DNA from: a virus
Taxonomy: Duplodnaviria; Heunggongvirae; Uroviricota; Caudoviricetes
Length of the DNA stretch: 64,000 nt
Virus record (IMG/VR): IMGVR_UViG_3300046507_000426
Reading direction: 5' to 3' (one strand)
This document shows positions 6,289-63,684 of this stretch, piece after piece. The translations under genes were made by a program, and so were the position numbers. Below the pieces are notes generated by a model. That model was not told where the DNA came from. It did no database searches and saw nothing but the letters and a program-made list of their open reading frames with translations. Numbering within the stretch: position 1 is the stretch's first letter; every line of letters begins with the position of its first letter.

Positions 6289-6298
6289 CTTATACCAA
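6289..6298 (-). promoter_or_regulatory. Extended -10 promoter motif TTGGTATAAG (minus strand)
   Basis: One of 17 or more intergenic copies of plus-strand CTTATACCA(A), each upstream of a minus-strand gene. Confidence 0.5.
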
Positions 6299-7116: not shown

Positions 7117-8739
7117 TTAGATACGTCCAGCTATAAATTCAGACATGAAACGCGGCGTCTGCGTATCGAAGCCCACAACATCAAGCATGTTCGGATCCTT
7201 GGGATCTGCGATGCTGAAGTCATTGACTGCCATACCGACTACGATCAGCTTTGCATCAGGCTTGTTCATGCCTTGGCGATACTTTTGCATGGCTTGGAAC
7301 GGATGCTGTCTACCAGCATACGTCTCGTTGTCCGTATAGATACAGAACGCATCCACGTTCCAACGGTGTGCAAGCGCATGTTCAGCAGGCAAAGCACAGT
7401 TCGTAGAACCGAAGTTCCAGTCATGCGCCTTGGTGGTAGCCGATTCAAGCGTATCGTGCTTCGTGATGTTCAGCGGCTTGAACGTCTTAGCGAAGCCCAA
7501 CACTTCAGTCCAAGGTTCCGTACGAGCCGAAACCATAGCCATCAGTGCAGCACCTTCACAACACGTCAACTGCGGAACACCCGGAATAGCCGAACCCATT
7601 GAACCTGACACGTCAAGCGCCAGAACAATATTCTTACCAGACGGTTCCACCGCGTCGAACGAAAGGTAGAACGCCGCTTCAAGCGTATCCTTGACGGTAT
7701 TATCCGGGGTCCAAACCAGCGAACCCTTATCGCCCTTGCCTTGAGAGTAGATCTTCTTAGCAACGATAATCGACATCGGATGCAGACGTTCCTTACGAAG
7801 CTGTTCCACATCCAGAAGCTTGGTCGTGACCAGCTTACTCGTTTCCGAGAAAGGCTTGATCAGTCCAACAGCCGTCAGCTTGTTCAGGTTACGAACCAAT
7901 GCATTCAGGCCCATATGCGGAACGAGTGCTTCCCAAATCTTCGGGTCATTCTTTTGCTCATTAGGGATCATTTCATGCGTCAGCTTGTGATCCTGAATCA
8001 GGTTGACAAGTGCGCTGCCGCTAGCAGTCTTGGCTTCTTCAACTGCAATCAGAAGCTCAGGAACCTGGTCACCCAGAGCAAGTGCTTCCGGACCCTTCAC
8101 GATGTACTTGTAAAGGTTTTGACGAACCGTGTCTTCACCAGGCTTCACATGCGACAGACGCATAACGTCCTTGTGCGACCAACCATCACGTTGCTTGTAC
8201 TTCACAACCTGATAGGCGAGATTCGTCACAGTCTTGTCCGCATACCACTTCTGTGCAACGTTCTTAAGCGAACGACCCCAACCTCTAAGTCCATTCGCAA
8301 ATGCAACGAAGTGCAGGAAGTGCGTGCCAGTACGAGCCACGAGGTTCACTTTGTCCTTGGCATACAGTTTCGTAGCCACGTCACCGTGAGTGAAGACCAA
8401 CGCCATAGCAAGCAACGCGTAGTCATTGTTCTTGGCACGACCAGCCTGGCTGATCTCAACGATACGGTCGACCACAACCTTACCATTCGTTTGGATCAAC
8501 TTGACGATATCGTCGACCTTGGCCTTGGTGATATCTTTCTCGGACTGATAGAACGTACCACCGCTCGTACCGATGATCAGGAAACGATCGAGCTTCTGCA
8601 GAGGCGTTACCTCAAACACAAAGCCGCCAGCGTTGTTCTTTACTTGAGCGACAGAAGCATTACCAGCCGGTTTGGTCTGAACCGTAGTCTTTGCTTGAGT
8701 GCGGGTGTTGGTATTGTTAGAGAGGGAATTGAAAGACAT
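7117..8739 (-). CDS. rsr: Ro60/Rsr orthologue (TROVE domain plus C-terminal vWA/MIDAS domain)
   Basis: 540 aa; the N-terminal region matches the TROVE domain as I remember it; C-terminal NIVLALDVSGSMGS (DxSGS MIDAS motif) is vWA-like; domain order and size match Ro60/Rsr. Confidence 0.75.
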   Translation of the reverse strand: MSFNSLSNNTNTRTQAKTTVQTKPAGNASVAQVKNNAGGFVFEVTPLQKLDRFLIIGTSGGTFYQSEKDITKAKVDDIVKLIQTNGKVVVDRIVEISQAGRAKNNDYALLAMALVFTHGDVATKLYAKDKVNLVARTGTHFLHFVAFANGLRGWGRSLKNVAQKWYADKTVTNLAYQVVKYKQRDGWSHKDVMRLSHVKPGEDTVRQNLYKYIVKGPEALALGDQVPELLIAVEEAKTASGSALVNLIQDHKLTHEMIPNEQKNDPKIWEALVPHMGLNALVRNLNKLTAVGLIKPFSETSKLVTTKLLDVEQLRKERLHPMSIIVAKKIYSQGKGDKGSLVWTPDNTVKDTLEAAFYLSFDAVEPSGKNIVLALDVSGSMGSAIPGVPQLTCCEGAALMAMVSARTEPWTEVLGFAKTFKPLNITKHDTLESATTKAHDWNFGSTNCALPAEHALAHRWNVDAFCIYTDNETYAGRQHPFQAMQKYRQGMNKPDAKLIVVGMAVNDFSIADPKDPNMLDVVGFDTQTPRFMSEFIAGRI

Positions 8740-13892: not shown

Positions 13893-14126
13893 TTAAAGTC
13901 CTAGCAAAGCTAGAAGTGCTGTGCCTGGAATTACCAACGGCCAGAAGACAGTAGCAGTTAGACACTGACCTATTTCCGTCAACTCAATTTCTCTCCAGGT
14001 TATTTCCCTATGGAATGACTCAGAGATTCCAGACCCAACCATAACGCCGCTTACGAATATGAAACCAACGACGTATATGATTAGAAGGATATGGCCCCAG
14101 CTCATTTCAGATCGTACCAAGCCCAC
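13893..14126 (-). CDS. Small membrane protein (2 TM), holin-like topology
   Basis: ILLIIYVVGFIFVSGVMVG and ATVFWPLVIPGTALLALLGL. Confidence 0.3.
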   Translation of the reverse strand: MGLVRSEMSWGHILLIIYVVGFIFVSGVMVGSGISESFHREITWREIELTEIGQCLTATVFWPLVIPGTALLALLGL

Positions 14127-15028
14127 TTGCCCTGATCCTTGGCATCAACCGATTGCCATGCTGGGCTCGTATTTGTGGTCTCTTGCAAGTCGTCGATGTT
14201 CTTCAGGAAGCATGCACGCAGCGCAGTCAAAGCCGACACGAAGCGTGCAGACTTGTATTCACGAGTCACGAACAACGACCGGATCGAAACCGTCGGCACA
14301 CCCGCCGCGTTCAGGTTACGATACGACAGACGCGCAGGTTGATATACCGCCTTCAGCTTGTCCTGGATCGCAGGTTGAATAGGCAAGAGCCTGTATGTGC
14401 TAGGCAACGCTGCAACTTCTGCCATCGGTTCACCGCCAACGATAACCACACCGTCGACCTGACCCGCGCTCAAAGCTTCGAGCGCAGCCTTGTTCGAAGG
14501 AAACTCCGTCACATTGTAACCAATACCCGACTGGGCTTTGATCACTTTCGCAGTGAGAACCGAACCACCGGCAGCGCCGACGCTACGACCATTCAGATCC
14601 GAAATCGTGTTGAAGTGAATGGTCTTGGCACCGAAGCCTAGAACACCACCTTCCTTCACGCCTTCAGCACGTGCGATCAGGTGAACCTGTTCCGAGTGAA
14701 GCGAGAACAGAGTCTTGACCTTGCTGAGATCTTCGGTCTTGCTACGCAGGATCAGCACGTCGGTCTGAACGAATGCGCCATTGACCTGATTGGCCACCAT
14801 CTTGTCGACGTTTTCGTTCGACCCCGACGACGGTACTTCCTTGATGTCAATACCGCTTCCGGTATCGACACCGCAACGCGCATTCAACTCCCTGAACATC
14901 GCGTGATACGTACCTGCAGGCCCGCCAGTTGCTACGGCGAGAGATTGAGCGTGAGCAGCGTGACACACGAGAAATGTGAGCAACGCTGTGAGAATGATCA
15001 AAGGGATACGGGGAACGCGGGACCAAAT
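14102..15028 (-). CDS. Secreted periplasmic substrate-binding-like protein (TAXI/PhnD-type solute-binding fold)
   Basis: Signal peptide MIWSRVPRIPLIILTALLTFLVCHAAHA from internal ATG; mature region resembles phosphonate/TRAP-TAXI solute-binding proteins; assignment from memory. Confidence 0.4.
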   Translation of the reverse strand: MWSRVPRIPLIILTALLTFLVCHAAHAQSLAVATGGPAGTYHAMFRELNARCGVDTGSGIDIKEVPSSGSNENVDKMVANQVNGAFVQTDVLILRSKTEDLSKVKTLFSLHSEQVHLIARAEGVKEGGVLGFGAKTIHFNTISDLNGRSVGAAGGSVLTAKVIKAQSGIGYNVTEFPSNKAALEALSAGQVDGVVIVGGEPMAEVAALPSTYRLLPIQPAIQDKLKAVYQPARLSYRNLNAAGVPTVSIRSLFVTREYKSARFVSALTALRACFLKNIDDLQETTNTSPAWQSVDAKDQGKWAWYDLK

Positions 15029-15834
15029 CATGACTTCTCCTGGGTATTGGAAAGAAAGAGGATGCAGAAAACTTCGGTGTAGCCGAACACACAAACTACG
15101 GCAAGCAGAATTGCCGCTGCGTCAAGCAGCAGATTTGTAATGTCCACTTAGTTCACCTTCAGGTCTTTGAGATTGTTATCGTCCGAGGACGGGGCCGCAG
15201 CCGGAGCCGAGGGCTGGGATACGCCTGTGGAGTCATCAGAGCCCACAGAAGCGGTCGACGTGGTGTGGTCAAAGGCGAAGTAGCCACCCACGCACACCAG
15301 GACCACCAAGAGGCTGGCAATCAGTCTATACACAGTTAGTGTACTCCGAAGAAAGTTCAAGTTTAATTACAGGCTCGTGAAGCCGAGAGCCGTGCATCGG
15401 ATCAATCCAGCAGTACTGCGGAGCAATATCGTGTTCACCATGCCAGATACGCCCTGACTGATGTTCCAATCTTTGACCACAATGACTACAGTAAACATCG
15501 ATAACAGGCACGTTTACCCTCGGTTGAGATGAGACAGTAGAATATCCGCTGAGGTTTCATCCTGAATCGTAACGAGGTAATCACCGTCAGGATCCAGAAT
15601 ATCCCAAGTACCAGTGCCGTCAGGTTGTTTCGTGTACATTAAAAACTCCAGGTATGGATTTCTTTACCGCACTGACCGCAGTTGAACCCATCGTAGCCTT
15701 CACTACAGCCACTCATATCTTTTCCACGATACAGCTCCCGGACTTCGTCGGGCAGATACTCGTTGATGGCTCCGCAGTGAGAGCACGTAACGCGCTTAGC
15801 TACGGAAGTGTCTTGGCCAACTACTTTAGGCATG

Positions 15835-16617
15835 TCAACCTACCTTTGCGACGACCGGACTATGTGCGTCGACAGTATCGAAGTTTGCGACCGGAGTAGG
15901 GTTATTGGAAATTGCCGTTCCCGGCGTAACCGAGAAGTTGACTTCTTCCAGCAGTGACGTTTCCAGTTGAGCCATTGCACTATTCATGCGGCGGCTTACT
16001 TCATCGATGGCAGTCTTCGACTTCAACTCTTCCATCAACTTGTCGGAGTCCATCTGCGCCATCTTGTTAAGAGCTGCCATTTCCACGGCCATCTCATTCA
16101 CAGCACGACACTTCTCGATTTCCAACAGATAAGCTTCCAACGCCCCCTTGGCGACTTTGTAGTCACTGGTCCACTTGGCCAACACTTTTTGAGCGTTGGT
16201 AACGGCCTGGTCGAACATTGCCGCATCGTTGGGCCATTGCTTCTTGAAGCCAACGACCTTGTCTGCGAAGTTTTTGACACTCGCAGAGAGATCGCCGATT
16301 CGCTGAAGGGCTTCCTTCAATCGGTCAGCCCGGTCATTTGCAACATTGACCATCGTCTCGATGGGGTTCGTCTTGGCTTCCTGGACGATCTCTTTGACCT
16401 TCCAGTTCGCAAGTTTCATCGAAATGACGGGCGCACCGTTAACAATCGCCAGACTCACGAGTCCAGCAATAGCGATGCCAATTAGTCCTTTGACTAAAAG
16501 CATGATAGCAGGTGCGAGGAATGCAATCGCTATAGCTCCGATTGCGATCTTAATGATCCCAGCGAACTTCTTGCGTTTCAAATCAGTGTCATTCATGGTC
16601 TCTCCTTGTGTAGGCAT
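15835..16617 (-). CDS. Membrane-anchored coiled-coil protein (260 aa)
   Basis: N-terminal TM helices (IKIAIGAIAIAFLAPAIMLLVKGLIGIAIAGLVSLAIV) followed by a long helical region. Confidence 0.45.
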   Translation of the reverse strand: MPTQGETMNDTDLKRKKFAGIIKIAIGAIAIAFLAPAIMLLVKGLIGIAIAGLVSLAIVNGAPVISMKLANWKVKEIVQEAKTNPIETMVNVANDRADRLKEALQRIGDLSASVKNFADKVVGFKKQWPNDAAMFDQAVTNAQKVLAKWTSDYKVAKGALEAYLLEIEKCRAVNEMAVEMAALNKMAQMDSDKLMEELKSKTAIDEVSRRMNSAMAQLETSLLEEVNFSVTPGTAISNNPTPVANFDTVDAHSPVVAKVG

Positions 16618-16641: not shown

Positions 16642-16651
16642 CTTATACCAA
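16642..16651 (-). promoter_or_regulatory. TTGGTATAAG extended -10 promoter
   Basis: Plus cttataccaa upstream of 15835..16617. Confidence 0.45.
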
Positions 16652-19756: not shown

Positions 19757-21154
19757 TCAGATTGCTGCGTTGCGACGTACATCGCTAAAAGACTGGTCAC
19801 GAATCAAAACACCATTCGCATATACAGGTTCCAACAGATCTACACGACCCATAGCATTTTCACGACGAATCGTGGTCAACACTCCGTCATTATCTTCGAC
19901 TAGTGCAAGATGTCCGCGCTTGCTGGTCTTGCCACCAGCGATCGGATCCTTGTACACGTCCAGCCATTTACCATCGACACAGACAGACGATGCCTTCATT
20001 GCAAACGAAAGCGTGTCACGGTCAAGCTTTTGATGCAACGCTCCGCCCATGCCGAATGCAACGTTCTCGGCGCTGAATCCAGCCAACTTAAGAGCAGCAA
20101 GAATTTTCTCGATGCTTTCAGGGTTTACACCATCACCTTGAATGACGCGGACCTTGTTCAGGACCTTAAAGCCTTTCGAGTTAACACTGTAACCGAACGC
20201 ATCGGCCAGTAGCCCGACCACCGTAGAAACGACAGATACAGGTTCACCAGAATCTGGACGAACCACAAGAGTACCAGGTTGGGCCAGGACAAAGTCACGA
20301 AGCTCTCCGCCCCAGATATTTTTAACAGCGTTAAAGATATCGTAGCTATCACTGACAACAGCGAATAGGCCTTGGCCGAATTTTTCGCACATATTTCTAT
20401 AAGCGTCAGCTTCGTGCGTACGCCCCCAACTAGTAATAGTGGAATGCTCAGCAGCGGGAATAGAATAACCCAATCCATTGTAGTCAGCTCCGTAAAATTG
20501 ATGTGCATATTCCAGGCCCAACATAGTGTCGGTACCCATGAAATTAATCAGGTGAGCTGCTCCCGCGATTGCCGACGTTTCGGTCGAGCTTGCCCCACGT
20601 GCGCCAAAGTCATGAAGCTTGAAGGGCATTTCGTCGAGCGGCTTATCGCACGTATCGACAAGGTACTTGAAGATGATCTCTTTACAGTGCCTCGAAATTG
20701 AAGCCACCGTAGTACCGAACCACGCTGCACGAAGGATCTGGGTTTCGAAGAACGAACCGATCCAAGGCATTTCTTCGTCAGTAGACATGACATCCACTAA
20801 TATATTCGACATCGGTACTTGCAAGCCTTCCGGGACTGCGCGGATCACCATCGGAGCATGACCACCATGCACTTTTACCAGGCGATCAAATTCTTTCTTA
20901 GCGAAGGGCTCCCCGTGAATAGAATTGACCTTCATTGCGTACTCGACATGCTCAGCGGTGATTGCGTTGAGCAAGTAATCCTTGATGTAACCTTGCAGAC
21001 CAAAGAACGTGGAGTTCTTGATTCCGAACCCGCTGTTGTCCTTGCGTGCTTCTACGTAAGAGTAAAGACCGGTAGTGCCTTTCGGGTATTGGAGAAAATG
21101 TGAATGCTTGTAAGAGTCAGCATTCAGGAGGGGATTGATTTTAAAGTTTGACAT
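19757..21154 (-). CDS. nadV: Nicotinamide phosphoribosyltransferase (NadV/NAMPT)
   Basis: 465 aa; N-terminal NPLLNADSYKHSHF matches the NAMPT signature; size typical. Confidence 0.85.
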   Translation of the reverse strand: MSNFKINPLLNADSYKHSHFLQYPKGTTGLYSYVEARKDNSGFGIKNSTFFGLQGYIKDYLLNAITAEHVEYAMKVNSIHGEPFAKKEFDRLVKVHGGHAPMVIRAVPEGLQVPMSNILVDVMSTDEEMPWIGSFFETQILRAAWFGTTVASISRHCKEIIFKYLVDTCDKPLDEMPFKLHDFGARGASSTETSAIAGAAHLINFMGTDTMLGLEYAHQFYGADYNGLGYSIPAAEHSTITSWGRTHEADAYRNMCEKFGQGLFAVVSDSYDIFNAVKNIWGGELRDFVLAQPGTLVVRPDSGEPVSVVSTVVGLLADAFGYSVNSKGFKVLNKVRVIQGDGVNPESIEKILAALKLAGFSAENVAFGMGGALHQKLDRDTLSFAMKASSVCVDGKWLDVYKDPIAGGKTSKRGHLALVEDNDGVLTTIRRENAMGRVDLLEPVYANGVLIRDQSFSDVRRNAAI

Positions 21155-21206: not shown

Positions 21207-22355
21207 TTAAATACCGACCAGCTTGCGAATAATGGAAAGATGATCTTCGTAGATCTTATCTGCCATCTTCAGGATTTCGTCGTACGTGAAGAACTTGGCA
21301 TCTGCTGCGTCGTCTCCAGCTTTGATCTTGGGGATTCCAGCTTTCTTATCCGCCCGGTCAAGATCAAAGAGAAAAGCATGGGTAAAAGTACGCCCACGCA
21401 GACTGCGATTAGGATGGTCAAAAACAACGCCTTCGCCCATAGAACCAAGCAACAGATTAGGAGGAAGATCAAGGCTAGTTTCTTCTTTGAGTTCACGAAG
21501 CGCCGCATCTTTAAGTCTCTCATTCTGTTCTACGAATCCGCCTGGCAATGCCCATAATCCTTCACCCGGCGCGGCTTTGCGCTTCACAAGGAGAATGTGT
21601 CCAGCCTTCTTCACTACTGCATCTACAGTAACAAACGTAGGTGCATACGGAGCTGCCTTCCAAGCTTCCTTATACTTCTTGACCATCTGATACTCACGAG
21701 ACAGACGGTAGTATTCCGGAGACTTGATGAAGTCTTTCAGAAAGTCGAAAGTGTACGTAGGAACAAGGCTTTTCAACAGATCGATGAATCCTGGCTTTTC
21801 GAAAATGATTTCCCGAATCGACGTAGCGTCAAATCCGAGTTTCACTTCATCTACCGGAACATAGTCATATTGCGGGAACAGATCGAGATAATACGAACTC
21901 TCGTCTTTCTTATTGCCGACAATCGCAACCTTGATAGGTTTACGTTTTTCAACAGGAGTTGAAGCATCGTGCAAAGGGGTGTAGTATGCGATTTTTTCCT
22001 GAACTTGCTTTGCCCAGTCATCGTCGGAATACATATTATCAACCAAAGCTTCGGTATTAAACCGACCTTCGTTGATAGTGCCGATCTCTTCCTGCGTAAG
22101 AGACATAGCAATCATCGTCGCACGTTCATCGTACGTGAAAGGATTCTTGATGGTGCGGGGGGCGTTTGCAGACCCAATCAATACAAGAACACGATCAGCG
22201 ATCAGCATTCCTTTATTGACGAGAATCTGGTGACCAACATGGTAGGGTTCAAAGCGACCCATTACTACTGCAAGATCATATTCTTTGGGTTTACGTTCCG
22301 TAGAAATGATTTCATACTGCTGCACGATTTCGTGCTTAAGGGACATAATTGACAT
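21207..22355 (-). CDS. nadM: Bifunctional NMN adenylyltransferase / Nudix hydrolase (NadM-Nudix)
   Basis: VVMGRFEPYHVGH carries the (H/T)xGH nucleotidyltransferase motif; C-terminal GGFVEQNERLKDAALRELKEETSL is the Nudix box; pairing with nadV as in KVP40-type phages. Confidence 0.8.
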   Translation of the reverse strand: MSIMSLKHEIVQQYEIISTERKPKEYDLAVVMGRFEPYHVGHQILVNKGMLIADRVLVLIGSANAPRTIKNPFTYDERATMIAMSLTQEEIGTINEGRFNTEALVDNMYSDDDWAKQVQEKIAYYTPLHDASTPVEKRKPIKVAIVGNKKDESSYYLDLFPQYDYVPVDEVKLGFDATSIREIIFEKPGFIDLLKSLVPTYTFDFLKDFIKSPEYYRLSREYQMVKKYKEAWKAAPYAPTFVTVDAVVKKAGHILLVKRKAAPGEGLWALPGGFVEQNERLKDAALRELKEETSLDLPPNLLLGSMGEGVVFDHPNRSLRGRTFTHAFLFDLDRADKKAGIPKIKAGDDAADAKFFTYDEILKMADKIYEDHLSIIRKLVGI

Positions 22356-26300: not shown

Positions 26301-26478
26301 ATTATGTGGTAGGGCTACAGGGTACTGACCCCTATTCTACGGATTAAAAGTCCGTTGCTTCACCTTAAAGCTTTAACCCCACAAATGAAAGCTAGTATAC
26401 ATTGCTTTGAGAAGACCCACAAGGAGTCTTTCCAAAACAAGCTAGGCTCCTTGTGAGAGCCCAGCCGTTTACTTACGC

Positions 26479-31735: not shown

Positions 31736-32266
31736 TTAGCCTCCAGAAGACCAGCCTTCCCGTTCCATCATGGCCATAGCTTCGCCTTCAAAGGCGTCTT
31801 TTAGCAATGCCGGGTCGGCTTCTCTTAGCGCCAGCATCATTGCCAGATTTGCAATGTCTACGGGATCCCCTTTGGGGACATGGCTGACAAGAAGATTCGC
31901 TAATCGTTTTGTACTGCATTGTTCTGGATCATCCCAACCGCTTCTACCCTTCTCACGAGACTTTGCAAGCTTCGCTTTCATCATGGCTGCGAACTTGTCT
32001 ACTGCGAAATCGTCAGGATGAGGCTCCGATACTTTGGAACCTTCCCACACATAGACTAGCTCTTCGAGTTCTTTCAAGGCCGCGTTTCTGTTCTTGTGTT
32101 GACTGCGTTCTGTAATGCATTCGGTCACAATACCGCTAGGGATGTGCGTGATTCTCACACCATTAGCCATTCCTACTCTTTGACCACCTACGGCACCGCC
32201 ATAACAGTCGATGCGTAGGTCTTTAGGGTTAATCGAAACCAAAGGTGTCTGACGCTCTTCTTTCAT
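31736..32266 (-). CDS. Peptide-chain-release-factor GGQ-domain protein (ArfB/PrfH-like peptidyl-tRNA hydrolase domain) with novel acidic C-terminus
   Basis: 176 aa; [46 protein letters not shown] closely resembles RF1/RF2 domain 3 (SGAGGQHVN..VRITHIPTGIVVQCQ.ERSQHKN); lacks codon-recognition domains. Confidence 0.7.
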
Positions 32267-38072: not shown

Positions 38073-38142
38073 TAACAAAAGGGGGATACGAGCCCCCAGC
38101 CTCACAAGAGTATGTGCGCTCTACCAATTGAGCTATTTTGTT
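38073..38142 (-). ncRNA. tRNA-like RNA with canonical acceptor, D- and T-arms but a 6-nt anticodon loop
   Basis: Acceptor AACAAAA/TTTTGTT, D-arm GCTC-AATTGGTA-GAGC, T-arm GGGGG-CTCGTAT-CCCCC, anticodon region CACA-TACTCT-TGTG. Confidence 0.35.
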
Positions 38143-38170: not shown

Positions 38171-38179
38171 CTTATACCA
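38171..38179 (-). promoter_or_regulatory. TTGGTATAAG promoter upstream of tRNA pair
   Basis: Plus cttataccaa. Confidence 0.45.
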
Positions 38180-38182
38180 AAC

Positions 38183-39440: not shown

Positions 39441-39516
39441 TGGTAGGAACATCGGGGCTCGAACCCGAGACCTTCAGATTTAGAATCCGCTGCTCTGCCA
39501 ACTGAGCTATATTCCC
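39441..39516 (-). tRNA. tRNA with anticodon CTA (putative amber suppressor)
   Basis: Acceptor GGGAATA/TGTTCCT, D-arm GCTC-AGTTGGCA-GAGC, A26, anticodon arm GCGGA-TTCTAAA-TCTGA (U33, anticodon C34-U35-A36, A37), T-arm TCGGG-TTCGAGC-CCCGA, A73-CCA. Confidence 0.5.
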
Positions 39517-44180: not shown

Positions 44181-44274
44181 TGCGGAAGATTACGGGGTCG
44201 AACCGTAAAGGCTATTTCTAGCTCGCTTGTTTTCAAGACAAGTTCCGTCGCCAGCTATCGGATTGATCTTCCGC
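44181..44274 (-). tRNA. Type II tRNA with anticodon TGA (Ser-type) and an apparent 9-bp acceptor stem
   Basis: GCGGAAGAT pairs perfectly with ATCTTCCGC; anticodon arm CTTGT-CTTGAAA-ACAAG; long variable arm; T-arm TACGG-TTCGACC-CCGTA; no encoded CCA. Confidence 0.5.
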
Positions 44275-46138: not shown

Positions 46139-46147
46139 CTTATACCA
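46139..46147 (-). promoter_or_regulatory. TTGGTATAAG promoter upstream of tRNA-Leu
   Basis: Plus cttataccaa. Confidence 0.45.
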
Positions 46148-46152
46148 AAGAA

Positions 46153-52069: not shown

Positions 52070-52078
52070 CTTATACCA
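52070..52078 (-). promoter_or_regulatory. TTGGTATAAG-type promoter (variant GTGGTATAAG)
   Basis: Plus cttatacca(c). Confidence 0.4.
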
Positions 52079-52098
52079 CTAAAGCCTTGTTTCTTTAA

Positions 52099-54522
52099 TT
52101 ACAAACGCGGATCCAGCGTCTTTTCTTCATTCAGTTGCGAGATCATTTTCACAACCAGTTCAGTCAGAGCAGGGCCATTGTCTGCTGTCAGCATTGCCAG
52201 TGCAAGATCGTGTTCCTTGATAGAAACCTTCAGCTTACCGCCGACACGTTTTTGACGACACAGGGCTTCATAACGGTTCTTGTAATCATAGCCATACACA
52301 AGAGTCAGGTAATTTTCATTCCGAACCTTCATATACGGTGCAACATCTGCCGTACCGTCAAGAGGCTTGATTACAAGGCCTTCCATCTTTTCATCAACGG
52401 TTTTACAGTTGAAGAAAGTCTTTGCATTTTCCAAAACCTCTTTATCGTTTTCAAGGTCGATGATTACGATGTCGTCCTGGTTAACCAAGTCAAAGGAATC
52501 TGCAATCTGGAATTTGTCACCAAACACCTTACCGTCAACCTTCAGAATAGAGAACGCACTGTATTCCGGACGGCTTTCCTGAGCATAAATATCAAGGGTT
52601 TCGCCGAATATCTTCAGATCAACCTGACGAGCTTCGACGTCGATTTTTGCCTTGAATCCCAACTTGGCAAATTCCTCATCGTTAGCCAATGCATCCAGTT
52701 CGTAATGTACCAAACCTTCATACGCACGGAACTGTTCGTCAACCAGACTTTTACCAAGGGTCGTCCACGGCAGAAGTTCACCGTCAAGAATCAGTTCTTC
52801 TTGCCAGAAGTCAATACTTTCCCCTTCGTACTTAGCAAGCAATTCCTGAATCATAACGGTGAGGTCTTCTGTCATGCGAATCTTAAAGCCATTACGAGAA
52901 ACCAGGAAACACTCTTCCGGTTTACCGCGATACAGATATGCCTGACAACGTGAACCCATGTACTTCGGTTGAAGCATGACCCGCTTCGTTCCACGACTTT
53001 TGAAATACTCAAGTCCAGCTTCAAGACTTTCGATTTCAGTGTTAGTCGACGGAGCAGGGGCCATCGTTCCTGAAATGTACTGAACTCGGTTTGCGATAGT
53101 ACGCTTCAGAAATCTCATATCTTCCGGCGACAGTTTGTAGTCGTAGATATTGAACGACTTCTGCGGAGGTGCTATCGGAGTCGTCAAGAAGTTCTGAAGA
53201 CCCTTGTGAACTGTTACCTTTTCAGCTGCCTGAACCGAATCAAACCAGTAACGATTTCCTTTATAACAGAAAGCAGTAAGCTTGCCGCCATAAACAGCCC
53301 CAGTATCGAGAAACACCTTGTTACGATGTTCCAGTTTGGCTGCATTGTGAGCAACGTGCCCAAACACATGCAAAGGAAAATTCCCAACAGCTTCCTTGAA
53401 AATAAACTCATAAGCCTTCCGGTAGTCTTCTTTTCGATCACCGTACAGATTGCGCTGAGCCTTAAGTGCTGCAGAATTCATCTTACCCAAATACTTCTGC
53501 TCGCACGGAGCATGGGTTACGTAAACTGTACGGACTTGGTTGCCGTGAATCTTCAAGAACGGAACAGAACAGCGATCGAACAAGTCCACAAGCTCTGCTG
53601 CCAACGTTTCGTCTTTCAACAGAACGTCAAGCGAACTCATGTACTTCGATTCCATCTCCAGATCAGGATTTTTGATTTCACCCTTGATACGCTTCACCGC
53701 ATACGACTCGTGATTGCCGTGGAGAATAATGCCACCGTCGGTGTGAAACTTCCTGGCGAAGGCAATTGCTTTGGCAGTATCATTGCCTTTGTCAATGTAA
53801 TCACCGACAAGAACATTGATGCTATTTGCACCGACCTTAGCTACAAGCTGTTCAGCAGCTTCCGTGTGTTCATGTACATCTCCGATGATATTCACCTGCA
53901 TGTCTCGACCAAGATAGAGCTGAGTAGCTGCGTATTTGCCCAAATCTTCGATTTCAACTTCCAGATCTATCCACTTTTTGGCGTCTCGTTCACGGATACG
54001 AATACAATCATCGTGATCTTTACGACCGAGATTCGGAAGGACGCTTTGTTTGAATCGCTTGGCGCTCGATTCTACAACCCGTTTTTCTTCCTCATTCGAT
54101 TCCGACCAGTACTGATAGTTCGGATATTCAAACGTAATCAATTCAGTACGATATTCGTTTTCTTCAGCGAGTTTACGAATTTCCTTTCGAAACGTATCAT
54201 TCATACCAGTAGTATCAACGATTACGAATTCACTGTTGATCGGGAACGCAATCGCCGCTTTAAACTTCGCCATCATCACGTTGAAAGCTGCTTCCGAAGC
54301 TTCCATCATGACCGGGGCGTAACGATGGAGACTCAAATCATCCAAGACGTTCATTCGTTCAGCATCAGAATTCAAGTTTACAACCTTCGAACCTGCAGCA
54401 AGTCCTGCTTTCATCAACTGAAAGTTCAACGCAAGTTCGAACTGTTTCGAGAATGTGGTTTTACCGCACATCGAAGGGCCAACCAAAATGAAGACTGTGT
54501 GGAGTTTAGTTTGAATTTTCAT
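52099..54522 (-). CDS. pnkp: Bacterial-type polynucleotide kinase-phosphatase with C-terminal ligase domain (Pnkp)
   Basis: 807 aa; N-terminal P-loop GPSMCGKTT (kinase); central metallophosphoesterase motifs IIGDVHEH...GDYIDKGND...LHGNHESY; C-terminal nucleotidyltransferase/ligase KVDG motif (SILKVDGKV). Confidence 0.75.
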   Translation of the reverse strand: MKIQTKLHTVFILVGPSMCGKTTFSKQFELALNFQLMKAGLAAGSKVVNLNSDAERMNVLDDLSLHRYAPVMMEASEAAFNVMMAKFKAAIAFPINSEFVIVDTTGMNDTFRKEIRKLAEENEYRTELITFEYPNYQYWSESNEEEKRVVESSAKRFKQSVLPNLGRKDHDDCIRIRERDAKKWIDLEVEIEDLGKYAATQLYLGRDMQVNIIGDVHEHTEAAEQLVAKVGANSINVLVGDYIDKGNDTAKAIAFARKFHTDGGIILHGNHESYAVKRIKGEIKNPDLEMESKYMSSLDVLLKDETLAAELVDLFDRCSVPFLKIHGNQVRTVYVTHAPCEQKYLGKMNSAALKAQRNLYGDRKEDYRKAYEFIFKEAVGNFPLHVFGHVAHNAAKLEHRNKVFLDTGAVYGGKLTAFCYKGNRYWFDSVQAAEKVTVHKGLQNFLTTPIAPPQKSFNIYDYKLSPEDMRFLKRTIANRVQYISGTMAPAPSTNTEIESLEAGLEYFKSRGTKRVMLQPKYMGSRCQAYLYRGKPEECFLVSRNGFKIRMTEDLTVMIQELLAKYEGESIDFWQEELILDGELLPWTTLGKSLVDEQFRAYEGLVHYELDALANDEEFAKLGFKAKIDVEARQVDLKIFGETLDIYAQESRPEYSAFSILKVDGKVFGDKFQIADSFDLVNQDDIVIIDLENDKEVLENAKTFFNCKTVDEKMEGLVIKPLDGTADVAPYMKVRNENYLTLVYGYDYKNRYEALCRQKRVGGKLKVSIKEHDLALAMLTADNGPALTELVVKMISQLNEEKTLDPRL

Positions 54523-54531
54523 TGTTGATCC

Positions 54532-55833
54532 TTACTTGTTTTTCGTTACGACAAGCATCGTCGAAGTATGAACGCCATTTACTGCATCGCCGATACCTTG
54601 GCCGATGGTCGAAATTGCATGGGACTTAGAGATTTTCCAGAGCCAATCGTAGAAGTCCTGTTCATTCATTTCCCACTTGTGATCATCGTGACGGAACTGA
54701 TCTTCTGTCATCAGATAATTCACATTGAAAGCCTTGTTCGGAACCGTGATAACCAACTTGTTAAAGTCAGTCTTCAGAACGGCATCAACAAGCTGTTTTG
54801 CATCTTTAAGAGGAATGTGCTCCAGAACTTCTGTGATGAGCACGTCTGCTCCGCTAAAGAGCAAGGAACACTCATCAATCGATTCGGGAGTTGCAGCATC
54901 TCGGAGAATAACGTTTTCGACTTCTCGTCCCTTGAGTTTTTCAAGCATGTTCTCGCGGAGTTCGTCATCCGCTTCAAACGCAAGGACTTGTTCATATTTC
55001 GAACTGAGCGGGAGCGTGTAATTGAGTTCACCGCACCCAATGTCAATGAGTGTCGCTCCTCCTCCCAGATGGGGGAAGATAGCTTCTTTACGCTGAGCAA
55101 GGGTGTCACCGTGCCAGAGGTCGATCGTGTCCGTATCAAGCAGCGATTTGTTCTTAAGAAATGTGTCACGATTTGAGAATACATTCCGTTTGAAGAGGTA
55201 ACGAATGAAGTACGGTGCATTGATACGATTTATCGCAGCAATATACTTCTCGACGATATCGCCCTTGAGATTGACGTAAATGCTTTTTGTCGAAACGCAG
55301 AACATCAGGAAAATTACCATTGCCGCATTGAGCATTTCGTGAACTGTAGGCCCCGAGATAGTGACCTTGTACGCACAGCCTGCGATATGTTCGGCTACAA
55401 AGCTGTACCCATTGTCCAACCCGAAGGAACCATTGAAGTGTTGATTCAGATGATTCAACATGCTGGCGCTGCGAATTTCGACCGTAGTTTCCAGGTACGC
55501 ACTCCAAGATTCCGAAGTGTCTTCTTCCTGATGTGTTTTAAACGCTGTTGCCAAACAGTTCGTAATCAGCGAAATCGGCAAGTAGGGAGACGCATAGCGG
55601 GTACGGTCAAGATATTCAAACTCTTGGCCAATGCCCTCCGCAAAAGAACAGTTCTGAGGACTGTCTTTAAACCAAAGCCGAAAGCTTTGATCATCGGCTC
55701 CGAACCATCCATACGCCATACCTTGACGGATCGATTTCTTGTAGGGCTCTGCACTTTCACGAATCGTTGCAGGGTTCTTGGAAATGATCCAGGAAAACTT
55801 GGGGTTCGAAGACCCGATAGTAAGTACGGCCAT
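54532..55833 (-). CDS. hen1: Hen1-like RNA 3'-terminal 2'-O-methyltransferase (bacterial Hen1, Pnkp partner)
   Basis: 433 aa; C-terminal Rossmann SAM-MTase motif I LIDIGCGELN plus acidic motifs; N-terminal domain of Hen1 size; immediately upstream of and co-directional with pnkp, 10-nt spacing. Confidence 0.65.
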   Translation of the reverse strand: MAVLTIGSSNPKFSWIISKNPATIRESAEPYKKSIRQGMAYGWFGADDQSFRLWFKDSPQNCSFAEGIGQEFEYLDRTRYASPYLPISLITNCLATAFKTHQEEDTSESWSAYLETTVEIRSASMLNHLNQHFNGSFGLDNGYSFVAEHIAGCAYKVTISGPTVHEMLNAAMVIFLMFCVSTKSIYVNLKGDIVEKYIAAINRINAPYFIRYLFKRNVFSNRDTFLKNKSLLDTDTIDLWHGDTLAQRKEAIFPHLGGGATLIDIGCGELNYTLPLSSKYEQVLAFEADDELRENMLEKLKGREVENVILRDAATPESIDECSLLFSGADVLITEVLEHIPLKDAKQLVDAVLKTDFNKLVITVPNKAFNVNYLMTEDQFRHDDHKWEMNEQDFYDWLWKISKSHAISTIGQGIGDAVNGVHTSTMLVVTKNK

Positions 55834-55901
55834 TATTTCACCTTTTGGTTGAGGAGCTAAAAGAGATAAAGATAGGATAGCGTTCCTACCACAATACTTT
55901 T

Positions 55902-55910
55902 CTTATACCA
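55902..55910 (-). promoter_or_regulatory. TTGGTATAAG promoter upstream of hen1-pnkp
   Basis: Plus cttatacca about 60 nt upstream of the hen1 ATG. Confidence 0.5.
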
Positions 55911-56090
55911 AGATTCAGAGATATTGATTAAGCGGACCAGCTGGGTCACGCATACGGGTAAACGTTGCCGAAGGTCCTTTGAACGAATCTTCAACATAGC
56001 CACAAGTTTTGCATTCAAACCAGATAGGCGTGTTTACAATCTTGGACTTTTTGTCCTCGCCGCATTCAGGGCAGTGTTCAAGAGCTTCAG

Positions 56091-56348: not shown

Positions 56349-56527
56349 GAAATCATGGACAGAATAGAAGCAGGTACGAATGCGAACAGATTAGTAAGTC
56401 CAGAAAGAAAACCATGACCGTCATCGAAAGGCCAGAATAAAGCCCAGCTGAAACTAAGAATAGTTATCAACGTAGGAATCATCCACCATTGAAAATGAAT
56501 AGTGATAGTCATAACTGCTTTTCCCAT
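56321..56527 (-). CDS. Small membrane protein (68 aa)
   Basis: Two hydrophobic helices. Confidence 0.3.
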   Translation of the reverse strand: MGKAVMTITIHFQWWMIPTLITILSFSWALFWPFDDGHGFLSGLTNLFAFVPASILSMISWIIAGVLK

Positions 56528-57516
56528 TCTTCAAATACACGTTTAACATGAGCTTCGACTTGTTCTGAAGTCATCGACTCAATTCTCTTCAGAAACGCTT
56601 CCCGGTCGTTGCCTCGGTAGTCCGCCATAAATCCGCCAAGCTCTTTACCTTGTAACCCTGTCCAGAGGCCGACGAATTCACCGTTGAACTTCTTCTTGAC
56701 TTTTTCGACTCTGAAGTAATCAAACGTGGCGTGGATAAATTCCATTGCGACGTCTGGACGTTCTTTTGCGGCGATAAGAAATCCATGATCCCTCGGCATA
56801 CGTTCGGACGGAAGATTCTTGTCTTTCATCCATTCCAGAAAATCCATATACGTCTTGCGTTTCTTATCCCGTACACGGCCAACAGCGTTTCGATTCTCTA
56901 GTTGGTAATTCCACGTAGTGAAGAATTTGCTTTTACAGGTGAAAACAAAAATGTCTTCGAGGTTACGAAAACCAGCGTTGTACTCAAACATGCTGTAGCC
57001 CAGAAGATGAAGAGCCACAGCGAAGTCTTTCGTAATGCAAATTTCTTTGACAAGTTGAGTATCTACAATGTATTTATACCACAGACCATCGTGGCCGAAC
57101 TTAAGTCCAACGCCATGAGCAGTCTGGCCGATAAGATTGCCTAAATCGTTATAGGCAAAGTACTTCAAAGCGAAGTCGAAATCTTCGTCAGGCACGGTGA
57201 TGAAGTCGATTTGAAAAATAGCCCGTTTCATCAACAGGGCTGTGATTTCCAAACCGAACGATAAGACGTTACCGTTCTGATGATATTCAGGAGAAACTAA
57301 AGCCTTCTCCACAAACTCCCGAAGCTTATCCATCGGGATGCCTGAAATCAGAATGTCCAAATCTCCAAAGCTTTCCTTTTCTTCATATGCAGGAATAACT
57401 GCAACCTTAGCATCGGGAAAAGCCTGTTTCAAAACATCAGAAGTCCCAGCAGCTACGTGTTCATAGTACTTTTTTTCTAATCTGACTGTTTGAAGTTTGA
57501 GTGCATTACCGCCCAT
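56509..57516 (-). CDS. Putative Pol-beta-superfamily nucleotidyltransferase
   Basis: 335 aa; N-terminal MGGNALKL... with the acidic motif ESFGDLDILISG resembles the NTase active-site hG(G/S)...DhD pattern; helical C-terminal domain; function speculative. Confidence 0.3.
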   Translation of the reverse strand: MGGNALKLQTVRLEKKYYEHVAAGTSDVLKQAFPDAKVAVIPAYEEKESFGDLDILISGIPMDKLREFVEKALVSPEYHQNGNVLSFGLEITALLMKRAIFQIDFITVPDEDFDFALKYFAYNDLGNLIGQTAHGVGLKFGHDGLWYKYIVDTQLVKEICITKDFAVALHLLGYSMFEYNAGFRNLEDIFVFTCKSKFFTTWNYQLENRNAVGRVRDKKRKTYMDFLEWMKDKNLPSERMPRDHGFLIAAKERPDVAMEFIHATFDYFRVEKVKKKFNGEFVGLWTGLQGKELGGFMADYRGNDREAFLKRIESMTSEQVEAHVKRVFEEWEKQL

Positions 57517-62664: not shown

Positions 62665-63504
62665 TTAGGCAACGTTGGCTTGATCGTGGAAGAGCCTGAA
62701 ACTACCATCGCTTACCGTCAACGACGTAAGCTTCGGAATGTTCGTGAGCCTCACGATCGCACTACGTTCTACTTCCCTGCTACCGCGATGCTTCTCCGGG
62801 ATACGATTCCAGGTTCCGTCATCGATCAGCATGATCTTCTTAACTTTACGGGTGAACGTGCCTTGACGGAACGACTCTGGGTACTCTGCAAAGTTGATGC
62901 CTTTCTCACGTAACATTTCAATTTTCTCAGCAGTGTTCTTCTTGTGAAGTTCACCATGAAAAAAGACACTGTGTGCAGCCATGCTTACGCTATTCTTTCT
63001 GGCGTCCCACTGCCTCCAGATAAAATAATCGTATGCCAGGTCCCAACGAGGATACTGATATACCCGAGCATCGAAGACTGGGCGTTCAGCAAACTTGTTT
63101 GGTAGAAAGCCCTGCAGGTACGAGTTAAAAATAACCGAACACTTTGCTGCATACACACTCAACCACTTCTGAACGCTACCATCAAACTCAAGAGGTTTCT
63201 CAGTATCGAGATTGAACCAGAAGAGGCTGATCTCATCGCTTTGATGATATGCGAGATCAGGATTCAAATCTCGAATCAGATCGTCGACCGTGCATTGGAA
63301 TGTCTGTGCCAGATCCTTGTCGTAAGGCTTGCTAAGGTTCTTTGTGAACGTGTGAAAAGCGTTGCCGTCGAAACGGATGACCGTGGGAAGACCAGGCATC
63401 AGTTTTTCACTGAAGTAGTTCTTCTCATATTTCTTATGCATGTCACCTAGCGCCTTGAAGTCTAGGTGACGGATTTGTTCGATAGTTTGTACGTTGTCGT
63501 TCAT
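62665..63504 (-). CDS. Thg1-like protein (tRNA-His guanylyltransferase family 3'-5' polymerase; tRNA 5'-end repair)
   Basis: 279 aa; VIRFDGNAFHTFTK (Thg1 VVRIDGRAFHNFTK), QSDEIS (QSDEYS), FDARVYQYP (FDGRVVLYP), YFIWRQWDARKNS (YLSWRQVDCHINN). Confidence 0.7.
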   Translation of the reverse strand: MNDNVQTIEQIRHLDFKALGDMHKKYEKNYFSEKLMPGLPTVIRFDGNAFHTFTKNLSKPYDKDLAQTFQCTVDDLIRDLNPDLAYHQSDEISLFWFNLDTEKPLEFDGSVQKWLSVYAAKCSVIFNSYLQGFLPNKFAERPVFDARVYQYPRWDLAYDYFIWRQWDARKNSVSMAAHSVFFHGELHKKNTAEKIEMLREKGINFAEYPESFRQGTFTRKVKKIMLIDDGTWNRIPEKHRGSREVERSAIVRLTNIPKLTSLTVSDGSFRLFHDQANVA

Positions 63505-63651: not shown

Positions 63652-63660
63652 CTTATACCA
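63652..63660 (-). promoter_or_regulatory. TTGGTATAAG promoter
   Basis: Plus cttatacca. Confidence 0.45.
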
Positions 63661-63684
63661 AAAGAGGACCTGAATGATGACTTT

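Follow-up and report, generated by a model that had tools for sequence, protein, structure and literature searches.

A divergent Hen1-Pnkp gene pair in a tRNA-rich phage, predicted to repair RNA and protect it against renewed cleavage

Cleavage of tRNA has recently been recognised as a common output of bacterial immunity, produced by PrrC, AriB of PARIS, Cas13a, Cas12a3, Schlafen and OLD, and the known answers of phages are to bring replacement tRNAs or to heal and seal the broken ones in the style of T4. Two adjacent genes at 52099-55833 of a 64,000-nucleotide stretch of Caudoviricetes DNA (IMG/VR record IMGVR_UViG_3300046507_000426; the whole stretch is called the window here) raise the question of whether phages possess a further answer. 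The original prediction, made from the letters of the window, took the pair for a bacterial-type Pnkp-Hen1 RNA repair cassette. Our results bear out the repair cassette, in that family hidden Markov models (HMMs), searches of the PDB, Foldseek, invariant catalytic residues and conserved gene pairing concur, and we consider it probable that the pair is a Hen1-Pnkp RNA 'repair with immunity' machine, made from one promoter-like element and translationally coupled. If true, phage Hen1-Pnkp adds a different answer to tRNA cleavage, namely chemical immunisation of the repaired tRNA, and the tRNA pool would stay resistant to the host anticodon nuclease for the rest of the infection. The two open reading frames (ORFs), of 807 and 433 amino acids (aa), lie exactly where they had been placed, and both are intact and co-oriented on the minus strand. 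The genes and the domains assigned to them are as follows.

52099-54522, minus strand: pnkp, an 807-aa kinase-phosphatase-ligase (ORF, stop codon included)
53944-54522, minus strand: 5'-OH polynucleotide kinase domain, aa 1-193 (P-loop, DxxR, profile, fold)
53212-53904, minus strand: 2',3'-phosphatase / cyclic phosphodiesterase domain, aa 207-437, of binuclear metallophosphoesterase fold (invariant residues, profile, fold)
52102-53115, minus strand: ATP-dependent RNA ligase (adenylyltransferase) domain of Pnkp/Rnl type, aa 470-807 (Pfam, motifs, PDB)
54532-55833, minus strand: hen1, 433 aa (ORF, stop codon included)
55132-55833, minus strand: Hen1 N-terminal domain, aa 1-234 (Pfam Hen1_N, PF22032)
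54538-55098, minus strand: C-terminal 3'-terminal ribose 2'-O-methyltransferase domain dependent on S-adenosylmethionine (SAM), aa 246-432 (motifs, PDB profile)

What is the larger protein? A kinase, a phosphatase and a ligase had been proposed, and Pfam, profile searches of the PDB and Foldseek agree on all three. They follow one another in a single polypeptide as an N-terminal kinase, a central binuclear metallophosphoesterase and a C-terminal ligase, an order read in the same way from Pfam, domain HMMs, profile-versus-PDB comparison and Foldseek. Pfam returned PNKP_ligase (PF16542) over aa 479-778 at 77.4 bits (gathering score 28.2) and Metallophos at 37.6 bits (gathering score 21.5), and the top NCBIfam model was TIGR04075, bacterial Pnkp. 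We compared an AlphaFold2 model of the protein (predicted local distance difference test, pLDDT, 94.4) with the PDB using Foldseek, with TM-scores normalised to the target. Rnl came first (0.71-0.75), Pnkp-C scored 0.68, and the phosphatase and kinase of Clostridium thermocellum (Cth) Pnkp scored 0.69 (4j6o) and 0.77 (4gp7). The structural comparison with C. thermocellum Pnkp that the original prediction had proposed as a check therefore finds the Cth kinase, the Cth phosphatase and Pnkp-C among the best fold matches.

Residue conservation was read from alignments of 96 Pnkp and 82 Hen1 homologues, 32-98% identical to the window proteins. In the kinase, the P-loop G15-PSMCGK21-T22-T23 corresponds to Cth 15-GSSGSGKST-23 and D53-x-x-R56 to Cth 38-DFCR-41. 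Residues G15, G20, K21, T22, D53 and R56 are invariant, and Lys21, Ser22, Asp38 and Arg41 are essential in the Cth kinase, CthPnk. Among the kinases of the PDB, CthPnk (4gp7, 4jst) is the best match to this domain, at about 44 bits by profile; it was undetected with the single sequence. Eight residues of the phosphatase are invariant (D215, H217, D241, N270, H271, H337, H389 and D406), and by motif order they match D187, H189, D233, N263, H264, H323, H376 and D392 of CthPnkp, all of them essential there (PMC3675462). Counterparts of eight out of nine CthPnkp phosphatase residues are therefore present and invariant; the ninth, Arg237, differs. The best phosphatase match in the PDB is again CthPnkp (4j6o), at 26.9 bits with the single sequence and 63.8 bits with the profile.

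The ligase carries motif I as K520-Y-M-G-S-R in 96 of 96 homologues, aligned to KHMGSR of Cth and KYMGS of Rnl, and D580/E582, F657, E714-G-x-V-x-K719 and K732-x-R734 are invariant as well. Against Rnl of the Capnocytophaga Pnkp1-Rnl-Hen1 complex (4xru_B) it scores 127.8 bits as a single sequence and 236.7 bits as a profile, at 26-28% identity; the corresponding scores against the C. thermocellum Pnkp ligase are 42.9 and 134.8 bits. The domain had been described earlier as a KxDG ligase. The ligase stands and the motif does not, the true motif I being K520-YMGSR. The only literal KxDG, K661-V-D-G, was rejected as the nucleophile: its lysine is present in 32 of 96 homologues, and we regard it as a chance match.

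The smaller protein had been taken for the partner Hen1, and it is. Pfam Hen1_N (PF22032) covers aa 4-234 at 175.7 bits (gathering score 27), the top NCBIfam model is TIGR04074 (bacterial Hen1), and the best PDB relatives of the C-terminal half are all Hen1, HEN1 or HENMT1. The top eight matches of the PDB profile search are Hen1, plant HEN1 or animal HENMT1, with generic methyltransferases appearing from 31 bits, so that the chance raised at the outset of a match to a DNA or protein methyltransferase family instead is not what we find. Over its full length the protein matches 4xrp_C, the Hen1 of a Pnkp1-Rnl-Hen1 complex, at 96 bits as a single sequence and 236.4 bits as a profile; the canonical Hen1-N chain (4e6n/4drf) was undetected in the same profile search. 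The AlphaFold2 model (pLDDT 92.9) likewise has the Hen1 of 4xrp/4xru as its first Foldseek match, with a TM-score of 0.77-0.81. A DNA, protein or rRNA methyltransferase was considered and set aside, the RrnaAD/KsgA/Erm matches lying at 18-22 bits, below their cut-offs.

Among the 82 Hen1 homologues, the SAM motif D264-I-G266-C-G268 is invariant, and so are E335, E338, H339 and H385. These four, the putative metal ligands by comparison with CthHen1, lie within the EVxEH and RHxDH motifs that an alignment shows to be common to the window, Cth, Ava and Cgi Hen1 sequences. The methyltransferase is thus of the Hen1 type, with a predicted RNA 2'-O-methyltransferase activity. In characterised systems, the Hen1 N-domain binds and activates the Pnkp ligase (PMC3675462, PMC4411300).

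If the two proteins act together, how are their genes arranged and expressed? The elements that bear on this are the following.

54523-54531, minus strand: 9-nt spacer GGATCAACA from the hen1 stop codon to the pnkp ATG (sequence read)
55838-55845, minus strand: Shine-Dalgarno-like AAAGGTGA before the hen1 start codon (sequence read)
55902-55911, minus strand: promoter-like motif TTGGTATAAG, of the extended -10 type TGnTATAAg, 68 nt upstream of the hen1 ATG
52070-52079, minus strand: following copy of the promoter-like motif, GTGGTATAAG, 20 nt past the stop codon of pnkp, marking the 3' limit of the two-gene unit

The pair had been described as co-oriented with 10-nt spacing; the orientation is right, and the spacer is 9 nt by sequence. 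The ribosome-binding site of pnkp, TAAGGA, shares nucleotides with the stop codon of hen1. Several relatives have a 4-nt overlap between the genes themselves, an arrangement suggestive of translational coupling of hen1 and pnkp. The tight spacing and conserved pairing fit a stoichiometric complex, which we predict. Since a copy of the motif, GTGGTATAAG, recurs directly after the pnkp stop codon, hen1 and pnkp form one unit.

That the pair lies under one promoter was also part of the original prediction, and it agrees with the position of TTGGTATAAG ahead of hen1. The motif looks like an extended -10 promoter, and a promoter function is predicted for it. Allowing at most one mismatch, it occurs 16 times in the window, 11 times exactly and 5 times with one mismatch, and always on the coding (minus) strand; the expectation is 3.07, and a count of 16 was reached in none of 100 shuffles. 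Nearly all copies are intergenic, upstream of ORFs and tRNA genes, and those at 46139-46148 and 38171-38180 precede two tRNA gene clusters. The core TGGTATAAG is kept upstream of hen1 in phage loci L003-L007, L010, L012 and L015, where the flanks have diverged and the Hen1 proteins are 39-98% identical. In this phage group, TTGGTATAAG probably represents the early or the middle class of promoters. Further sites on the minus strand include 6289-6298, 16642-16651 and 63652-63661; a purine-rich A/G-A-A-G-T stretch often follows the motif, a -35 box is not evident, and the motif is present in related IMG/VR contigs as well.

How widespread is the pair? A megablast search of the cassette and of window positions 1-25000 against 50,697 phage records gave zero matches, and the phage is without a close cultured relative. 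By Pol A its nearest cultured phages are Salmonella phage Arash (47.6%) and the Vibrio phage D69 group (43.6%). Searches of a large protein collection gave 248 homologues of Pnkp and 220 of Hen1; many of the contigs concerned measure 90-180 kb, and some are bacterial and of megabase scale. In IMG/VR, a Hen1 relative occurs on 15 viral contigs of 27-504 kb. In 13 of these 15 loci hen1 is followed immediately, on the same strand, by a full tripartite pnkp, often with a 4-nt overlap; in one of the remaining two pnkp lies 5.9 kb downstream, and the other has a split arrangement. At least one tRNA gene is found within 10 kb in 9 of the 15 contigs. Among the GTDB species genomes, 39 loci encode tripartite proteins, 27-36% identical, mostly in Firmicutes (Bacillus, Listeria, Enterococcus, Paenibacillus, Brevibacillus) and in a few metagenome-assembled genomes (MAGs), with hen1 directly upstream of pnkp in about 35 of the 39. 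We count 17 viral and about 35 bacterial loci in which the two genes have remained together. Hen1 and Pnkp are the only window genes common to every viral and bacterial locus.

A neighbour-joining tree, built without bootstrap and without the canonical Pnkp and Rnl outgroups and used only for the split between viral and Firmicutes proteins, separates a viral clade that includes the window from a Firmicutes clade. The clade members that we tested, eight bacterial and two viral, score 137-189 bits on TIGR04075, low values that set the whole clade apart from the canonical family. Hen1-Pnkp of this kind therefore forms a sizeable unnamed clade in Firmicutes and phages, missed by the curated models TIGR04075 and TIGR04074, and it bears on how phages survive tRNA-targeting immunity. 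Within the deep viral clade (39-98% Hen1 identity) the pair has been kept at the same genomic position. In a twin contig that is 98% identical to the window (L003), the gene order runs Thg1, Pol A exonuclease/uracil-DNA glycosylase, Pol A, RNase H, ..., Hen1, Pnkp, ribonucleotide reductase large and small subunits, ..., PTH2.

This pattern decides against the cassette being an inactive or decaying passenger picked up from a bacterium. The low scores against the canonical equivalog models would be expected of such a passenger, and nothing else would: the ORFs are intact, the catalytic residues invariant and the G+C content matched to the genome (0.45 in the cassette region, inside the range across the window), and the pair has been retained in position, with its promoter-like motif, across a deep viral clade. 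We regard the passenger explanation as effectively refuted by the pattern of conservation.

Two further sets of relatives came to light. In BFVD, giant viruses of eukaryotes have full-length structural matches to tripartite Pnkp that are annotated merely as metallophosphoesterases, found by Foldseek as A0A1V0SF21 of Hokovirus HKV1 (863 aa, E 3e-54) and A0A3G4ZLK8 of Terrestrivirus (769 aa, E 2e-40). A 28.6-kb contig labelled as a Candidatus Saccharibacteria MAG (L042, CAZXDL010000010.1) carries hen1-pnkp together with homologues of the window genes at 14102-15094 and 15835-16617. In viral loci L010 and L012 the same two genes stand a few kb before hen1. The tree places the L042 Pnkp within the viral clade, and this contig may come from a phage and have been binned into a bacterial MAG by mistake.

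How does the window pair compare with the repair systems already known? With canonical Pnkp-Hen1 of the C. thermocellum type it shares adjacent, co-oriented genes, the order kinase-metallophosphoesterase-ligase, a Hen1 made of an N-terminal ligase-binding domain and a C-terminal 2'-O-methyltransferase of the Mn-dependent type, and the P-loop, DxxR, metal-ligand, KxMGSR and EVxEH/RHxDH motifs. It differs from the canonical system in its very divergent sequences, in a Lys in place of Arg237 and in being phage-encoded. The closest solved relatives of its ligase and Hen1 belong instead to the Pnkp1-Rnl-Hen1 heterohexamer of Capnocytophaga gingivalis (4xrp/4xru; PMC4411300). In that system, however, the ligase stands alone and the healing enzyme is Pnkp1, which resembles T4 Pnkp (about 30% identity); the window joins its ligase in one chain to a kinase and a metallophosphoesterase of CthPnkp type. 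In the Pnkp1-Rnl-Hen1 bacteria that have been described, moreover, hen1 lies far from the rnl-pnkp1 operon (PMC4411300). We ruled out the three-protein system for the window given the fused ligase, the metallophosphoesterase as phosphatase and 4j6o as the best structural match. The affinities of the pair are mosaic, with ligase and Hen1 nearest Pnkp1-Rnl-Hen1 and kinase and phosphatase nearest CthPnkp, and the label 'bacterial-type' that the pair had been given needs qualifying, its scores falling far below the equivalog cut-offs and its ligase and Hen1 being nearer to those of the three-protein system. Putative Pnkp1-Rnl-Hen1 has also been noted in Borg elements.

The T4 answer to PrrC, Pnkp (PseT) with Rnl1, is alike in that a phage heals and seals nuclease-cleaved tRNA, using the same P-loop/DxxR kinase chemistry. 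In T4, Rnl1 is separate from the kinase-phosphatase and there is no methyltransferase, hence no immunity to re-cleavage. The phosphatase of T4 Pnkp is of the DxDxT acid-phosphatase type; the window has a metallophosphoesterase, a ligase of the Pnkp/Rnl type that is predicted to depend on Hen1, and an added methyltransferase. Searches of Pfam and the PDB with the 807-aa protein found neither a T4-Pnkp-type phosphatase nor an Rnl1-family ligase, so the view that this solution is distinct from T4 Pnk/Rnl1 is upheld.

Among cultured phages, relatives were found only in Xanthomonas phage XacN1, Vibrio phages RYC and vB_VpaM_sm033 and Stenotrophomonas phages CM1/RAS14. Their Hen1 and Pnkp-type ligase genes are adjacent, 29-33% identical to the window proteins and rearranged in their domains. 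In XacN1 a small kinase ORF comes first, Hen1 second and an ORF with only the ligase third; in RYC and IMG/VR locus L014 the ligase-only ORF precedes a Hen1 fusion of about 710 aa. The window, by contrast, encodes a complete, fused tripartite Pnkp. The C-terminal extension of the L014 fusion gives a weak match to the kinase profile (27 bits); in the RYC fusion nothing was detected beyond the Hen1 domains. In 2018, the authors of the XacN1 genome, a jumbo phage with 56 tRNAs, annotated its PNKP and Hen1 as tRNA repair genes (PMC5852040). With a Pnkp ligase module and Hen1 already annotated there, the novelty implied by the original prediction was overstated: the enzyme type is already known, and the window pair is a divergent addition to it from an uncharacterised clade. 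The cassette is compact and conserved in many uncultured large phages and has rearranged cultured counterparts in XacN1 and RYC, which makes the idea directly testable in vitro and by heterologous expression.

Beyond the domain identities, catalytic residues, folds, gene pairing and upstream motif described so far, we infer the enzymatic activities, the complex, the tRNA substrate and the biological role. In the model that we propose, the kinase domain of Pnkp (K21, T22, D53, R56) would phosphorylate the 5'-OH end of a cleaved RNA, and the metallophosphoesterase domain (D215, H217, D241, N270, H271, H337, H389) would remove the 2',3'-cyclic phosphate. The Hen1 methyltransferase, with SAM and a metal site formed by E335, E338, H339 and H385, would then methylate the 2'-OH of the 3'-terminal nucleotide, and the nick would be sealed by the ligase domain, which would carry AMP on K520 and be activated by the N-domain of Hen1. 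The 2'-O-methyl group at the junction would take away the nucleophile of the nuclease, so that the repaired RNA would resist re-cleavage. In homologous bacterial complexes, repair and resistance to re-cleavage have been shown in vitro (PMC4411300, PMC3675462); with Rnl-Hen1, ligation was at least ten times faster in the presence of SAM, and tRNA repaired in this way withstood colicin D (PMC4411300).

Several points weigh against this reading. The kinase match to Pfam AAA_33, at 25.7 bits, falls just under the gathering score of 27. Neither protein reaches its equivalog cut-off, Pnkp scoring 124.6 bits on TIGR04075 (cut-off 750) and Hen1 62.7 bits on TIGR04074 (cut-off 340), where the methyltransferase half alone aligns; at scores so far below, functional equivalence is extrapolated across deep divergence. 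In the phosphatase, Lys245, four residues after the metal-binding Asp, stands at the motif position of the phosphate-contacting Arg237 of CthPnkp (Lys in 95 of 96 homologues), and the R237K change in CthPnkp raised the Km (PMC3675462). The cassette is surrounded by genes for DNA replication and nucleotide metabolism, and CthPnk phosphorylates DNA ends in vitro, too; neighbourhood and DNA activity leave room for a role in nucleic-acid end processing other than tRNA repair. The Toprim nucleases AriB and OLD, both tRNA-targeting defences, may leave ends that need no healing. Finally, the literature that could be searched, to which the 2016 comparative-genomics survey by Burroughs and Aravind does not belong, yielded no experimental work on a viral Hen1-Pnkp; that survey may already list phage Hen1-Pnkp systems.

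A DNA-directed role can be put in a stronger form, in which the main task of the 807-aa protein would be the healing and sealing of DNA ends, or nucleotide processing, in replication or recombination, and Hen1 would modify another RNA 3' end, for instance that of a small regulatory RNA, in the manner of eukaryotic HEN1. The neighbouring Pol A, RNase H and ribonucleotide reductase would suit it, as would the crystallisation of CthPnk with DNA oligonucleotide acceptors and a Pfam match to DNA_ligase_A_M (23.5 bits, below the gathering score). The best matches of the ligase domain, however, are RNA-repair ligases, and the gene is strictly coupled in the genomes to that of Hen1, a protein whose N-domain serves specifically to activate the ligase; this points to a joint RNA pathway. 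We judge this alternative very improbable.

If the pair is an RNA 'repair with immunity' machine, what does the phage use it for? The answer depends in part on the tRNA genes, which occupy the following region.

25310-46096, minus strand: phage tRNA gene region, 20-23 tRNA genes (ARAGORN, Rfam)

ARAGORN finds 20 tRNA genes in the window, all on the minus strand, and Rfam adds two, at 26310-26380 and 38073-38142, in line with the 20 or more first reported for this phage. The role we lean towards is that of a counter-defence, in which the pair would work alongside the more than 20 tRNAs of the phage against host immunity that cleaves tRNA, or against toxins that do so. We lean that way because of those tRNAs and the other genes for tRNA or RNA care (Thg1 and Ro60, encoded in the window, and PTH2, encoded on the twin), because the tRNA clusters and the cassette share the promoter-like motif, and because T4 sets the precedent of a phage that heals and seals cleaved tRNA.

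Much of the same evidence could be read as general maintenance. Here the same machine would serve the translation apparatus of the phage, mending phage or host tRNAs and rRNA damaged by phage-induced degradation of host RNA, by competing phages or by colicin-type ribotoxins, or processing phage tRNA precursors. A motif shared by cassette and tRNA clusters would be expected, as would a region rich in genes for RNA quality control and translation (Ro60, Thg1 and an RF-1-domain protein, with PTH2 on the twin). The bacterial members of the clade are ordinary chromosomal genes, the pair of Listeria booriae lying beside dnaA, rnpA, yidC and jag, and a Brevibacillus member is linked to Ro60; both facts suggest a housekeeping or stress role. 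Yet methylation of the junction makes sense only against recurrent, site-specific cleavage, bacterial tRNAs have no introns that would need such a pathway, and the classic phage precedent, T4 Pnkp/Rnl1 against PrrC, is one of counter-defence. We therefore think maintenance unlikely, and counter-defence remains the role we favour. A wider proposal, that the window pair represents a third, unnamed Hen1-coupled RNA repair lineage, long inherited in a large clade of tRNA-rich phages and acting as a viral 'repair with immunity' counter-defence that would reseal cleaved host or phage tRNAs and 2'-O-methylate them where they were cut, we put forward as possible, with some reserve.

Several other genes around the cassette deserve description. 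A 540-aa Ro60 orthologue is encoded at 7117-8739 on the minus strand (Pfam vWA_Ro60 194.9 bits, TROVE 127.2 bits). Ro60 is an RNA quality-control protein whose normal partners are Y RNAs. At gathering thresholds, Rfam found only tRNAs in the window, and a Y RNA beside the Ro60 gene was not found. In Brevibacillus migulae, a Ro60 homologue (L035:2278-3924) lies immediately upstream of the hen1-pnkp pair, an adjacency that suggests a functional link between Ro60 and hen1-pnkp. A Thg1-family tRNA-His guanylyltransferase (91.4 bits) is encoded at 62665-63504 on the minus strand, and the PTH2 peptidyl-tRNA hydrolase of the twin contig lies at L003:21401-21640.

Among the tRNA genes, all of those mentioned here being on the minus strand, the one at 26307-26380 is a tRNA-Lys(UUU) (Rfam 45.6 bits; label from relaxed ARAGORN), and 38073-38142 is an odd tRNA-like gene (Rfam 49.5 bits) with a shortened anticodon loop in relaxed ARAGORN. 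A tRNA-Ser(UGA) at 44182-44272 appears at the relaxed ARAGORN threshold only. The tRNA at 39441-39516 has the anticodon CUA, of amber-suppressor type, and was labelled 'Pyl' by ARAGORN. At 31736-32266, minus strand, lies the gene of a 176-aa protein in which an RF-1 domain (peptidyl-tRNA hydrolase / release factor) scores 56.3 bits; together with the CUA tRNA it could point to stop-codon manipulation or ribosome rescue by the phage.

Closer to the cassette, three small ORFs upstream of hen1, a 335-aa protein at 56509-57516 (minus strand) has a GDLD motif typical of Pol-beta-type nucleotidyltransferases and matches PHROG 24943 ('DNA polymerase') at 135.8 bits. Its gene is also near the cassette in L004-L008 and L011. 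We considered it as an extra repair component and set it aside, as it has no sequence match in Pfam or the PDB and is kept in the closer phages only; it may be a tRNA or RNA 3'-end enzyme. The window further encodes an NAD+ salvage pair, a nicotinamide phosphoribosyltransferase (19757-21154, minus strand) and a NadR-like adenylyltransferase/Nudix protein (21207-22355, minus strand), which may counter NAD-depleting defences. Near the Hen1 of XacN1, too, there is a phosphoribosyltransferase gene, with the annotation nicotinate phosphoribosyltransferase.

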